Virus record (IMG/VR): IMGVR_UViG_3300032303_003357
Location: 1 to 43,036 of that record
Source of the DNA: a virus
Taxonomy: Duplodnaviria; Caudoviricetes
Direction: 5' to 3' (one strand)
DNA: 43,036 nt
Of the stretch, positions 17,513 through 34,428 are shown one piece after another (positions within the stretch are counted from its first letter, which is position 1; every line of letters starts with the position of its first letter). Below the pieces are notes generated by a model. It was not told the origin of the DNA. It made no database searches and was given only the letters and a program-made list of their open reading frames with translations. Position numbers and translations under genes: made by a program.

Positions 17513-19369
17513 ATGTATAGCTTAACTCAATACGATAAATGCTCAATACTACGCTTTGAAGATGTTATAGTTTCTTCAAAAGATTTTTACGTAACGTTTG
17601 AATATGCTTATTTTGGTTATGCGTTATCTGCTGCACACGGCTTTTCACTTTCTCTAGTAAATGCTAACGATGAATTTACTGGCGGCGGTCCTGGACCTGC
17701 ATTAGGTGCTGTTAGTATAGATGCGCTATCTGGCGGAGCACAAAGATTTTATCCAGGTATACAAAATTCATTACTTACAATAGGGTTCGATTCAACAGGA
17801 TATTTCGGTACAAGCTCTCTCACCACCTTCATAAACGGTAGCTCTACTCCACTTGCAAATTCAATTACTGTAAGATCGGGGCTGTATAATTATTATTATG
17901 ATTTTCTTTATAGAACTGAAAGACTATCAGATTCTGCAGCACTAGTAGAACCGTTCAATCTCTTTATACCATTAACAGGTACACCGCCAGCAGATTATTT
18001 TAAAAAGAACGGTACACTACCAAACATTCCGTTTAGAACTTTTAGACTCAGAGTAACTGAATTAGGTAAAAGAATAATTTTAGATCATAAAATAACAGAT
18101 AAATTCCAAACAATTTTAGATTATAAACTGCCCTATACGCTAAACAATACCCTATATCCCGTATTTGGTTGGTCGTCGGGGGTTGCCATTAACGGTACAT
18201 TGTCTGGCTTTGACAGTACATTATTAATAAAAAATGTAAATGTAAATGCGTATTTTACAACGCCAACACCAACAGCATCTATTACACCGACTAACACTTT
18301 ATCGCCAACCTTTACACCTACACCATCTATCACCCCTTCATATACACCTACATACTCTATTACGCCTACAGAAACACCCTCGTGGTCACCAACACCTTCC
18401 AATACACCTACTAATACACCTACAGCTTCTAACACACCTACAATATCGCTTACACCTACAAATACGAGAACACCTTCTAATACTCCTACACAGACACCCA
18501 CAGCTTCTAACACACCTACATATACAACCACACCATCCATCACACCAACTAATACAGTTACCCCTTCGCGTACCCCTACAAATACGGTCACACCTTCACG
18601 TACACCTACAAATACAACTACACCAACTAACTCTGTAACACCTTCACGTACACCTACAGTAACTAGAACACCAACAAAAACTCCACCAACTACACCTACT
18701 AGTACACCTACGAGTACAATTACACCAACTGTAACGCCTACTATTACTGAAACGCCTACTAATACTCGAACTGCTACAAACACACCTACAAATTCCGTTA
18801 CACCTTCAAATACACCCACAGGTACACCTACAAGAACACCCACGCTTACACCTACTGTAACACCGTACGCAAATTATGCAGTACCGTCTAACCAAACAAA
18901 TATAGTTTTAAATGACGCTACAATAGCTACTCCCTACCCAGTGACTTTTAACATCGCATCTATCACATCGCCCATTAAAAAGGTTACTATATCTCTTAAT
19001 AACTATAATCATTCATACCCAGGTGACATTGGTATGCTTTTAGTTGCTCCTGATAATACAGCAGTAATAATTGCTGGTCGCATCGGTGGTAACAATGACG
19101 CTGTTAATACCACTGTGCTATTAGATCAACAGGCTAATGCAGCATGGGACGGGTTTACTTCAGGTATTTATAGACCTAACAACACGGATAATAATTTACC
19201 TTTTGATAATACTGGTGGCTGCCCATCAGGCCCATATAATACAACACTAAACGCATTTAATGGTCTAACAAGCGGTAGCGCTAACGGTATATGGAAGTTG
19301 TATATACAAGACTTTATAGGTGACGATTCTGGTACTCTTTATAACGCTACTTTAACAGTATACTATTGA
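17513..19369 (+). CDS. Mucin-stalk protein 1: L-type-lectin-like domain, ~200-aa Thr/Pro stalk, proprotein-convertase P-domain
   Basis: N-term [27 protein letters not shown] (lectin-like); C-term [39 protein letters not shown] (P-domain); no signal peptide. Confidence 0.7.
18257..18865 (+). repeat. Mucin-like Thr/Pro/Ser low-complexity coding repeat (TPTNT, TPSRT, TPTVT)
   Basis: Direct translation; ACA-CCT/CCA-rich DNA. Confidence 0.95.
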
Positions 19370-19393
19370 TTTTTTATACCTCACAAATAAAAT
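19361..19393 (+). promoter_or_regulatory. Sigma70-like promoter TTGATT-N16-TAAAAT for the glycosylation cassette
   Basis: TTGATT 19366-19371, TAAAAT 19388-19393, GTG 6 nt later; 14-nt identity with 6022-6035. Confidence 0.5.
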
Positions 19394-19399
19394 AATCTT

Positions 19400-30933: not shown

Positions 30934-32537
30934 TGAACATTTCTGAAATATATACACAACAAGGCCTAATCTACAATAGACATCTATACTCTTCTTTAGA
31001 ATTGCCATACGATTTTGATTCTATAAAAATACAAGCTAATGACACTATTACTTGTGACTTGTTAAATATAAAACTTAATCATTTATTTGATAACTTTCTC
31101 TATCTATACAAGTCTTCTATAATCGCATCTAATATAATTCCCGTTTCTTCTACTTCTATGGCTGGCGTAACAAGTCATAATATCGGATTTACATGGTATA
31201 ATAGCGCAAGTAGTAATCAGTTTATACCAGTTTCATCAATTTCCGGCTTTAATAAAACAAATGAAATGATTTTACTTAAAAATGCTGATTTAGATCAATA
31301 TTCTGCAATTCTTACTACCGGATCAGCATTAAAAGTAATTAATTTCGATACTTATGCAACATATTTAACAGCTGCATATAGTTTAGATGTTGTTGTACCT
31401 AATTATAACGTACCATTTAATACCATAACAGCTTTTGCGCAGACCAGTACATTTTTATTTGTTTTAGATAGCGGGCTTAATAGACTAATAAAGTATGATG
31501 CTACAGGATTTTTAACTGATGATCCTATAAAAAAGAATAAGCTATTTTTTATTAATTCTATTGGAAATAGAGGTGATTTTAATTCAAAAGCAGAATTTAA
31601 TAATCCTAAAAGTATTACAGTTTATAAAAACGATATATTTGTTTTAGATTCAGGTAATAGTAGTGTAAAAATATATGATATTAATTTAAATTGGAAGCAA
31701 ACTAGTAGACTTTATGTAGACTTTTTATCAGCATTTCCTATAGACATAAAATGCGATAGTACAGGTAAAATATATATATTAACAGACAAAAATAAATTGT
31801 TTATTTATAATGATTATACTTTTCAAGAGAAAAGCGTTATTAGTCTAGACTCAATAAACGAAAACGAAGTATTTAAAAAATTATCATTCTCTAAATACGA
31901 CACTAATATATTTTACATATATTCTAATAAAAATGTATACAAAAAATTTGTTTCAAGTCCGGAACAAATAGTTGGAAAATACTTATTATATCTTCACAAA
32001 TACAACTCCTCTGAAGTAATAACTGCTTTTGATTCAGCAGCTGCAGTTAATGGTGATAGAAATTTACTTTTTAGTTATACCGTATCAAATAGTGCAGGTA
32101 AATTAGGTAATTTTTTTGATAGCTTAAATTTATTTGATATATTAGCACAAAGAGATTTTGACGTTTACTCTCCCGATGATATTAAATTTCAAAAAGGCGA
32201 ATACATTCAAAGTTGGGTTATAAACAAAAGTATAGCTATGTTATTATTAAATCATATGCGATTTAGAGACCAAATAATAGGCAAATTTATTGCACTAAGA
32301 GATAATAAAAATAATATAGTTTTTAAAGGTACGAGATATCTTCTACCAGATGAATTAGATAGTTTATTTTTTGATAATGATATAAGCTATTATATTGGTG
32401 TAAATGAAATTGTAGCTAATAATATTATTAACAGACCTCTTAAGAAATTATATTCCATACAAGAAAGATTACTATCTATATTAAAGTCGGAGATTCAAAA
32501 TGCTCCTAACGTAAATACAATTATAACTATAAATTAA
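30933..32537 (+). CDS. NHL-repeat-like beta-propeller virion protein
   Basis: [15 protein letters not shown] and [28 protein letters not shown] are NHL-type blades. Confidence 0.65.
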
Positions 32538-32538
32538 T

Positions 32539-34428
32539 ATGGCATCAAAATATATATTTCGAATTAATAGAGGAGCGGGCTTAACACCAGTTACACCCAT
32601 ATTACCATCAAGTACACCAGTACCTACCCCCACAAAAACGCCAACTAATACACCAACAATAACCTCTTCAAATACTAGTACAGCTACCCCTACACCAACA
32701 GTAACTAGAACACCTGAACCTACTCCCACAGGTACTCCTTCAAATACACCTACAATATCGGTAACCCCTACAATATCGATAACACCTACCAATACAAGAA
32801 CGTCTACAGCTACTCCTACTTTTGGAGTCACACCTACACCGACACCATCGATCACACCCTCGACATCGATAACACCAACAAAAACACCTACAATATCAAT
32901 AACACCTACCAATACAAGAACGTCTACAGTTACACCTACTAATACAAGATCACCAACAGCTTCATTAACACCAACTAACTCACCGTTTACTACCATTACA
33001 CCGACACCATCTATAACACCTACAATATCAATAACACCTTCTAATACAAAAACACCTACAGTTACGCCAACTATTACAGAAACACCTACCGAGACTCCGC
33101 CTGGCACACCTACACCGACAGAAACCCCTACAAAAACCCCTACACCAACAGAGACACCTACGCAGACTCCTACATCTTCAGAGACGCCTACGCAGACTCC
33201 TACATCTTCAGAGACACCTACGCAGACTCCCACGCAGACTGAAACACCAACCGAAACACCAACCGGGACACCTACACCAACATCTTCAGAGACACCTACT
33301 CAAACACCTACACCGACAGAGACTCCTACACAAACACCTTCCGTTACCCCTACTGAAACACCTACACTCACACCAACTCCAACTATTACTAGCTCTCCGA
33401 CGGTAACACCTACAATTTCTGATACTCCAACACCTACATGTACAGAATCGTTAACACCGACACCTACTGTCACATCAACACGTACACCTACATTAACACG
33501 AACACCTACTCGTACAGCTACTCCTACTAGAACCGCTACAGCTTCACCCACAGCTACAGTCACAGCATCAGTAACACCATCAATAACACCTTCAAATACA
33601 GTGACGCCTTCTGTAACGCCTTCAGCTACAGTAACAGCTACAGTAACGCCTTCTGTAACACCTACAGCTACTGTAACAGCTTCAGTAACGCCTTCAGTAA
33701 CCCTCACCAGAACACCAACATCTTCTATTACACCTACAGTTACACCTTCAATAACACCTTCAGCCACCGCTACAGCTTCACCTACAGCTACAGTCACAGC
33801 ATCAGTCACACCTTCAATAACACCTTCAAATACAGTAACGCCTTCTAGTTCAGTAACACCATCAGCTACAGTAACACCTACATCTTCTAGAACACCATCA
33901 GCTACAGTAACGCCTTCTAGTTCAGTAACACCATCAGCTACAGTAACACCTTCTAGTTCAGTAACACCATCAGCTACACCTACAGCATCAGTAACACCAT
34001 CTGATACCCCTGCACCTAATACTCTAGTATTAATGGGCCCATCTTCACCAGCTGGTCCTTCAACTTATCTATTAGCTCCTAATTCATATACTTACATAAC
34101 GTTACCTAATGGTGGCTCTGTTGTCGTTAGAACAAGTATATATACACCTCAAAGCAGTGGAGCCGGCGCTGGTTATACGTTCGCAATATCACCTACATAT
34201 AATACTACTCAAAACCCCATACCCTACACTGTTAGTATACAAAGCGATGGTACTATGCCCGGTGTACCTAATGGTACAGAAATTATGAGAATAGAATTTT
34301 TTGGTAATAGAAACAATACTGACTTCGGCGGAAGCTGGAACGGCGATTTCCAATATCCGTTCCAATGGTATGGTATTTTTAACGGAGATGCTACTTTAAG
34401 AATGCCTGCGCAATCGATTTATATCTAA
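32539..34428 (+). CDS. Mucin-stalk protein 3: short basic N-terminus, ~480-aa Thr/Pro/Ser/Ala/Val stalk, small C-terminal beta domain
   Basis: About three quarters of the 629 aa is low-complexity TP repeat; no signal peptide or TM segment. Confidence 0.8.
32584..34017 (+). repeat. Long mucin-like coding repeat with DNA-level tandem duplications
   Basis: 30-nt unit GAGACRCCTACGCAGACTCCTACATCTTCA at 33151-33230; ~80-nt near-duplicate starting at 33532 and 33766; 36-nt [16 protein letters not shown] units near 33830-33975. Confidence 0.95.

Follow-up and report, generated by a model that had tools for sequence, protein, structure and literature searches.

Why would a phage carry four sugar-modifying enzyme genes among its structural genes, directly between two genes for proteins with long threonine- and proline-rich stalks? 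The question is raised by the IMG/VR viral record IMGVR_UViG_3300032303_003357, whose 43,036 nucleotides (the window) are a 43-kb fragment of a T4-like myovirus. Four closely packed enzyme genes (19400-24912) lie there between the stalk genes at 17513-19369 and 24955-27498 (stalk proteins A and B), and a third stalk gene (C) follows at 32539-34428. An earlier note had proposed that this cassette glycosylates the stalks in the manner of eukaryotic mucins, and the open reading frames (ORFs) of cassette and stalks, all on the plus strand, are confirmed where it had placed them. We give a probability of about 0.72 to the reading that the cassette encodes a cytoplasmic, stepwise O-glycosylation pathway that coats the Thr/Pro tracts in appendage proteins of the phage itself, a pathway whose chemical steps we infer from the families and folds of the enzymes, from the tracts and from the co-occurrence of the two.

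The first gene of the cassette (19400-20707) encodes the predicted initiating enzyme. It matches PF11397, which we take to be CAZy family GT60, at an E value of 8.7e-75 (252.8 bits against a cut-off of 21), so that the GT60 membership suggested in the note is borne out by a hidden Markov model. Among the matches listed by Foldseek for its AlphaFold2 model (pLDDT 90.4), ranks 1 to 48 are all polypeptide N-acetylgalactosaminyltransferases (ppGalNAc-Ts), with E values down to 4e-10 and 11 to 16% identity, and the enzyme is predicted to have a GT-A fold closest to these mucin-initiating transferases. The positions that we presume to be catalytic, a DxH motif, a GEE motif and a distal histidine, are kept in its homologs (D109, H111, G220 and E222 in 145 of 145; E221 and H246 in 143). 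No ricin-type Pfam match was found at the C terminus, yet the model has a beta-rich domain of about 95 residues there. Sequence searches of the PDB with this protein, its alignment and the tandem enzyme described below found no relatives. Phage and bacterial sequences are interleaved in the GT60 tree, which is midpoint-rooted, contains phage and bacterial rows only (no eukaryotic sequences) and cannot indicate the donor. Shorter GT60-like proteins of giant viruses (Pandoravirus and Megaviridae samples) were seen among the BFVD matches.

The note's claim of up to three further glycosyltransferase domains agrees with the models and with hhalign, according to which all are GT-A folds or homologs of one. 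The model of the product of 23185-24912 (pLDDT 92.6) contains two GT-A domains; its best whole-chain Foldseek rows are LH3, K4CP (chondroitin polymerase) and LARGE1, while the single domains match GT6/GT8-like enzymes (first) and B4GALNT1, POMGnT1 and GnT-I (second; VIA Z 12-15 per domain), a shared fold that gives the class and not the specificity. The product of 20721-21605 is a paralog of the N-terminal domain of this tandem enzyme (hhalign to alignment A2, probability 98.3). The two HtrL-like proteins of the window score 25.5 and 41.6 bits with PF09612 (cut-off 24.1) and fall below the TIGR02192 equivalog cut-off. The tandem family adjoins GT60 in 95 of 150 loci and is its most constant partner, and an HtrL-like partner is present in 46 of the 50 viral GT60 loci that have full 10-kb flanks.

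The fourth enzyme (21602-23188) has both the N- and the C-terminal carbamoyltransferase domains (PF02543, E 2e-23; PF16861, E 3e-61) and PDB matches of the TobZ/GdmN/NovN type, but lies far below the NodU equivalog NF041651 (156 bits against 1000). Its subfamily tracks the GT60 gene in sequence comparisons: among the best 80 of 575 matches, GT60 is found within 8 kb in 46 of 56 loci at 47% identity or above and in 5 of 24 below it, where the contrast and not the absolute share counts, the query alignment having consisted of GT60-linked copies, and a few of its own loci being among the matches. It is nevertheless present in only 6 of 88 viral GT60 loci and hence optional. The neighbours at other GT60 loci include GT25, GT10, GT34, GT2 and GT7-like transferases, FkbM methyltransferases and one sulfotransferase (109 of 127 recurrent clusters scanned).

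The tracts of the three stalk proteins, located with a sliding window, span residues 242-460 of stalk A (nt 18236-18892), 235-451 of stalk B (nt 25657-26307) and 10-509 of stalk C (nt 32566-34065), and their cores of 207, 201 and 480 residues add up to 888, against some 880 low-complexity residues in the note. In each tract Thr/Ser accounts for 90-97% of every second residue and 3-8% of the remaining ones, and proline (20-24%) recurs mostly at intervals of 4 or 6 residues. TP dipeptides account for 5-14% of the stalk proteins, whereas none of 21 further window proteins that were checked exceeds 1.7%, and the Thr/Pro enrichment is far above chance. The codons of the tracts vary, so the pattern is maintained at the protein level. 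PTVT, a unit that the note had pointed out, occurs 3, 1 and 5 times in stalks A, B and C, while the synthetic peptide that it proposed for transfer assays has a literal match in none of them. None of the seven proteins, enzymes and stalks alike, has a 19-residue hydrophobic stretch above 1.5 (Kyte-Doolittle), as expected from the claim that they lack transmembrane anchors. ESM Atlas features (0.95-0.96) offer a lead that the N-terminal domain of stalk A may be lectin-like. In another virus, IMGVR_UViG_3300031787_000004 (L188:3352-19770), a 5,472-residue ORF consists almost wholly of Thr-Pro tract; the record is 61% complete and has no PF11397 match.

If the tracts are the substrate, the enzyme and the tracts should travel together. 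We collected 88 viral GT60 loci (9 plus 79 new ones from the best 80 of 596 confirmed, not de-duplicated), and a tract protein is encoded in the DNA around the locus in 55 of them; of the 50 with full 10-kb flanks, 32 have one, in 17 cases within 300 bp. From the tract-negative loci, 25 on longer contigs were chosen; a search of the whole records of 24 of them revealed tracts elsewhere in 9, including all 4 that are at least 90% complete. Starting from the tracts instead, with 137 pattern loci from which 29 on contigs of at least 85 kb were chosen and 25 searched, PF11397 was found in 16 of the 25 tract-bearing viral records.

Contigs of relatives of the window phage were retrieved by the window gp6 or clamp loader, independently of the cassette, and two that had been chosen by their tracts were excluded. 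Among 25 of the longer contigs, 4 carry GT60 and tracts, 3 tracts only and 18 neither, GT60 thus being absent from all 18 tract-free contigs. Sixteen contigs that continue for 18 kb or more downstream of gp6 divide into 4 with both, 1 with tracts only and 11 with neither, and merging near-identical contigs gives 4/1/0/7 (both, tracts only, GT60 only, neither; Fisher p 0.01). The double-positive state occurs in three places in the gp6 tree. In one relative that is 100% complete (G031) the structural block is retained, but the cassette is absent and the stalk B homolog has no tract, and in another (G027) the GT60 gene is located apart from the baseplate block, again adjoining a tract protein. 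On the co-occurrence that the note had asked about, the clade test, the whole records and the cultured phages below show that cassette and stalks are not independent, but their adjacency is not obligatory. A second glycosyltransferase cluster (GT8, DXD-motif, galactosyltransferase and radical SAM genes) was also seen downstream of the fibre genes in L384 (G024:C1:147000-154000) and L379 (G033), with or without GT60.

Among cultured phages the enzyme is rare, with a GT60-type protein in only 4 of 50,697 phage records (Xoo-sp13, the Xanthomonas jumbo phage XacN1, and the Stenotrophomonas phages CM1 and RAS14). The three that were examined have the full cassette and 56-68 tract-pattern matches each (reversed control, 0), whereas none of seven large myoviruses without the enzyme has any (six chosen from a capsid-protein match list and one from a separate search). 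XacN1 ORF334 is the GT60 homolog, 45% identical to the window enzyme, and XacN1 tract proteins adjoin its sheath and baseplate genes. Its virions contain at least two Schiff-positive proteins, for which the authors proposed ORF328 or ORF334 as the cause (PMC5852040; this and the other papers cited, PMC12645811 excepted, are represented by the parts of their text that were available). This is the nearest to experimental support, although the available text does not tie the bands to the tracts (PMC5852040). XacN1 shares with the window the GT60, carbamoyltransferase, HtrL-like and tandem GT-A genes as well as many Thr-Pro proteins; the available text of its description does not assign ORF334 to GT60 or mention the tracts and the carbamoyltransferase (PMC5852040).

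The pairing is not confined to phages. The GT60-type enzyme is encoded at 62 loci in GTDB genomes, with a tract protein nearby in 22, including 10 of the 18 with full flanks (within 10 kb), and GT60 with Thr-Pro proteins is found in Bacteroidota, Gemmatimonadota, Pseudomonadota, Verrucomicrobiota, Acidobacteriota and Desulfobacterales. The tract carriers are unrelated to each other: proteins with type IX secretion system domains, PqqD-like proteins that end in a Thr-Pro tail and are encoded next to an HprK-like kinase, LapA-type retention-module adhesins beside type I secretion system (T1SS) genes, VgrG, and small proteins whose leaders look twin-arginine-like by eye (no Tat-signal match in bacterial tract proteins in NCBIfam at E 0.001). 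In 12 of 23 genomes searched, the GT60 locus contains a TPTPTP[TS] match, where genome-wide counts would predict about 0.3; the 23 were hand-picked from the 62, 13 with a tract neighbour already seen and 10 without, which inflates the match count, although few matches occur as background. In five genomes of 4.5-7.3 Mb (G051, G054, G058, G062 and G066) the sole matches adjoin the GT60 gene, in G066 as a 55-codon frame. Short contigs of metagenome-assembled genomes (MAGs; e.g., L092, L093, L095 and L104) may be phage, and we put weight on long ones such as the 1.3-Mb contig (L110) of an isolate, Jiulongibacter sediminis JN14-9, where GT60, carbamoyltransferase and tandem enzyme form one operon. 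Since the enzyme is paired with non-homologous tract proteins in separate lineages, shared ancestry is hard to invoke and the tract is the likely substrate. Overall, comparative genomics argues well for a real enzyme-stalk module, and the reading of the earlier note is supported in a qualified form: the carbamoyltransferase is optional, the module is also bacterial, and glycoproteins had already been reported in the cassette-bearing XacN1 (PMC5852040).

Some bacterial loci have features of their own. In Gemmatimonadota (L105:5275-9235, L109:6278-10000, L112:8610-9919, L101 and L128), operons combine GT60 and a tandem GT-A enzyme with a nucleotidyltransferase-HtrL fusion, an HprK-like kinase and a PqqD-like protein whose tail is a Thr-Pro stretch, an arrangement that by its gene content looks like a system for glycosylated ribosomally synthesized and post-translationally modified peptides (RiPPs). 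An Acidobacteriota MAG (L113:336-2681; G063:C2:241744-251778) encodes a VgrG with a Thr-Pro linker, and more Thr-Pro matches, about 7 kb from its GT60 gene. In Rhodocyclaceae (L146-L148, around 5762-12519), T1SS genes accompany a fusion of GT60 with a methyltransferase and an adhesin of the LapA type that has a retention module and TPEPTTTPAPTA-like repeats.

The timing of expression was addressed through promoter motifs. TTGAT-N16/17-TAAAAT precedes both the GT60 and the dUTPase gene, and TAAAAT is conserved at the GT60 start in all 11 rows from close relatives, which represent 10 distinct contigs. A different motif, TAAATA, lies 11-13 nt before the start of 9 of 24 window genes (8129, 14383, 20721, 24955, 27538, 34460, 38680, 39961 and 41718), mostly structural, and recurs in relatives at 13 of 14 gp25 genes and 18 of 20 homologs of 14383-17511; stalk B has it 11 nt 5' of its start, like other structural genes, while the copy before 20721 was not conserved in two relatives. 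General promoter and terminator scans remained near shuffled levels. The fixed distances of the two motifs, with no evident Shine-Dalgarno sequence, suggest leaderless late and early/middle transcripts. Joint late expression of cassette and stalks was considered and rejected, as only 13 of 90 loci, with an expectation of 8.6, have TAAATA near the start of GT60 and the sigma-70-like motif is there instead. As the promoter type of GT60 differs from that of the structural genes, the cassette is probably expressed before its proposed substrates.

The pathway that we propose would run as follows. The enzymes, probably produced ahead of the late substrates, would act in the cytoplasm, where the GT60-type enzyme would add an alpha-linked N-acetylhexosamine, for which N-acetylglucosamine (GlcNAc) is our moderately favoured candidate, to Thr/Ser of the alternating tracts. 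The HtrL-like and GT2/GT13-like GT-A domains would extend this first sugar. The carbamoyltransferase would probably cap the glycan, its carbamoyl group occupying the slot that methyl-, sulfo- or further glycosyltransferases seem to hold in relatives. The glycosylated tracts, which we think quite likely to be located in the virion, would then be stiff, protease-resistant spacers that keep lectin-like, P-domain and RCC1-propeller heads off the baseplate. For this phage we infer the donor sugar, the linkage, the carbamoyl target and the virion location.

Several observations weigh against this reading. Of the GT60 loci with full flanks, 18 of 50 in viruses and 8 of 18 in bacteria are without a tract within 10 kb, and 15 of the 24 tract-negative contigs searched are tract-free throughout, all 15 being only 7-66% complete. 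Among near-complete tract-bearing viral records, only 5 of 10 encode GT60. Of the five that do not, three have tract proteins with signal-peptide-like N termini and one has a short tract of 56 residues, which leaves one true exception, a 94% complete phage (L175/G005; L175:9347-12262) with a 971-residue double-stalk protein and no GT60. Two relatives, G037 and G050, carry stalks without the cassette, in fragments of 40-47 kb, and the gp6 tree is poorly supported in its deep branches, which makes the number of independent gains and losses uncertain. The available XacN1 text names no glycoprotein bands, and ORF328 is another annotated glycosyltransferase (PMC5852040). The GT60 gene, finally, has an early-type sigma-70-like promoter as the dUTPase gene does, and not the TAAATA of structural genes; early expression fits enzymes that await late proteins but also the modification of host surface or DNA. 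As a separate observation, a run of unannotated 250-residue genes adjoins the stalk gene of L175/G005 and might hide another initiator.

The best of the alternatives, though in our view unlikely, is that the cassette modifies host surface glycans (lipopolysaccharide/lipooligosaccharide or capsule) against superinfection and that the stalks adjoin it by chance or through common descent. Cyanophage glycosyltransferase clusters have been interpreted in this way in a paper whose available text does not deal with the present module (PMC7824862), HtrL-like genes are named in the available text of papers on lipooligosaccharide loci, and the promoter is of the early type. However, the cassette is without a membrane protein, its lead enzyme folds like polypeptide transferases, and such a role leaves unexplained why unrelated Thr-Pro proteins are encoded next to the enzyme in six bacterial phyla and why the enzyme is absent from tract-free relatives.

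Hypermodification of the phage DNA, with glycosyl and carbamoyl groups placed on hydroxymethyl-pyrimidines, seems quite improbable. Phage carbamoyltransferases do modify 5-hydroxymethylcytosine (5hmC) in DNA (PMC8670742), the C-terminal domain of the tandem enzyme has weak matches to TAGT (E 2e-4, under the cut-off) and to a beta-glucosyl-HMC glucosyltransferase PHROG (E 8e-7), and the early-type promoter and the dUTPase in the window would suit this role as well. The DNA-modifying carbamoyltransferases are, however, paired with adjoining thymidylate-synthase homologs, those flanked by glycosyltransferases being on unmodified contigs (PMC8670742). No thymidylate-synthase homolog, which such a system would have within 3 kb of the carbamoyltransferase, was found in the window or among 118 neighbour proteins, the scan of which gave no TET/2-oxoglutarate oxygenase match either, and the operon is also found in bacterial chromosomes, beside exported proteins.

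It is very unlikely that the stalks serve as extended linkers without modification, or are not virion proteins at all, while the cassette glycosylates another phage protein such as the capsid. Mycobacteriophage glycans do sit on capsid and tail-tube C termini (as cited in PMC12619734), and some phages have stalks and no GT60, but tracts and enzyme are gained or lost jointly while the remaining structural block stays, and the same pairing is found in bacteria, which have no capsid. Least credible of all is modification through hydroxyproline, the target in Skp1 of Gnt1, the sole characterised cytoplasmic GT60 enzyme (PMC8724618), since for all the 20-24% proline of the tracts it is Thr/Ser at every second place that is strictly kept, and no prolyl-hydroxylase-type family was found in the window, a genome fragment, or in the recurrent neighbours (109 of 127 recurrent clusters scanned, singletons excluded).

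How does the proposed O-glycosylation of the stalks relate to known systems? Serine-rich repeat adhesins have an alternating Ser/Thr repeat and are glycosylated in the cytoplasm by GtfA/GtfB, a GT-B pair encoded beside the substrate. The system proposed here shares with them stepwise cytoplasmic O-glycosylation of an alternating Ser/Thr repeat and enzyme genes next to the substrate; it differs in its GT-A mucin-type initiator, its Thr-Pro tracts and the lack of an accessory Sec system. Stepwise cytoplasmic O-glycosylation is a described class in bacteria, and GT60 is not mentioned in that 2025 review of bacterial O-glycosylation (PMC12645811). The GT60 enzymes of protists are polypeptide alpha-GlcNAc-transferases, namely the Golgi enzymes of Dictyostelium and Trypanosoma cruzi and cytoplasmic Gnt1, the Skp1 enzyme (PMC8724618). 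With these the phage enzyme has in common PF11397, a ppGalNAc-T-like predicted fold, the lack of a ricin-type Pfam match and mucin-like Thr-rich tracts as the proposed acceptor (PMC8724618), whereas it is soluble, phage or bacterial, encoded in an operon with extending and tailoring enzymes and extended by a C-terminal beta domain, its acceptor being proposed from sequence. Mycobacteriophages also glycosylate virion proteins with phage-encoded enzymes, as is proposed here, but on capsid and tail-tube C termini (as cited in PMC12619734 and PMC10877033), in contrast to the hundreds of Thr/Ser in appendage stalks and the ppGalNAc-T-like initiator of the present proposal. The carbamoyltransferase resembles NodU/TobZ and the phage 5hmC enzyme in having both Pfam domains and the PDB homologs TobZ and GdmN; unlike the latter (PMC8670742), its subfamily tracks GT60 and not thymidylate-synthase homologs, and its proposed acceptor is a protein-linked glycan.

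A broader reading is possible, although we hold it only tentatively: the window would carry the phage form of an undescribed prokaryotic mucin-type pathway, with a GT60 initiator, a tandem GT-A extender that, resembling LARGE1 or chondroitin polymerase in its build, might produce repeating chains, and swappable carbamoyl, methyl or sulfo caps, exchanged by large phages and bacteria of at least six phyla. The alternating Thr-Pro tract would then act as a portable tag, open to any protein that is completed in the cytoplasm, be it a virion appendage, a T1SS adhesin, a type VI secretion system spike or a RiPP-like PqqD-domain precursor. A description of a GT60-plus-Thr-Pro module was not found in a literature search whose coverage left out most subscription journals. 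Dense mucin-type O-glycosylation is regarded as a eukaryotic Golgi pathway, and a soluble operon version in the bacterial cytoplasm, encoded beside its substrates, would change this view and bear on the origin of the GT60/GT27 enzymes. It would also account for the glycoproteins in XacN1 virions, provide a role open to test for the HtrL/YibB family, suggest that a common group of aquatic myoviruses (an estimated 1,900 or so IMG/VR stretches) bears variable glycan brushes, and offer a direct route to mucin-like glycoproteins in Escherichia coli. Cultured carriers and a public proteomics set, the XacN1 virion spectra PXD008065, make the pathway testable.

The window runs from dUTPase and clamp loader through the gp25/gp6 baseplate wedges to a tail-fibre gene, and the wedge matches upstream and tail-fibre PHROG matches downstream identify the region, by profile, as the baseplate/fibre block of a T4-like myovirus. 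Feature coordinates are collected in Table 1.

Table 1. Features of the window that bear on the proposed glycosylation of the stalks
Position	Strand	Feature	Support
8129..10467	+	Baseplate wedge gp25 and gp6 homologs	Pfam/PHROG profile matches
17513..19369	+	Stalk protein A (618 aa), likely substrate, with a putative L-type lectin-like domain at the N terminus, a Thr/Pro tract and a proprotein-convertase P-domain at the C terminus	P_proprotein E 7e-6
19366..19393	+	Sigma-70-like promoter candidate, TTGATT-16-TAAAAT, ending just 5' of the GT60 GTG start	Motif; same class before dUTPase gene
19400..20707	+	GT60-type (PF11397) glycosyltransferase, 435 aa, GTG start, extra C-terminal beta domain of ~95 aa; predicted initiating enzyme
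20721..21605	+	HtrL/YibB-like single-domain protein, 294 aa; predicted extending transferase	PF09612 E 1.2e-5
21602..23188	+	NodU/TobZ-family O-carbamoyltransferase, 528 aa; optional tailoring enzyme	PF02543 + PF16861
23185..24912	+	Tandem GT-A enzyme, 575 aa: HtrL-like domain and GT2/GT13-like domain
24955..27498	+	Stalk protein B (847 aa), likely substrate, with a conserved domain at the N terminus, a Thr/Pro tract and an RCC1-like propeller
27538..32537	+	Two tract-free conserved structural-block genes: 1131 aa, unknown; 534 aa, weak NHL repeat match
32539..34428	+	Stalk protein C, 629 aa: Thr/Pro/Ser tract of ~480-500 aa; likely substrate
34460..38671	+	Tail-fibre-like protein, 1403 aa	PHROG tail fibre matches to E 6e-78

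Two minor features lie further downstream. About 0.9 kb between structural genes (40783-41717) is without a long ORF and holds only frames of 64-71 residues. The ORF at 39961-40782 contains an 84-bp repeat in two copies (or a 42-bp repeat in three) at 40212-40391, likely a repeat of the fibre type.

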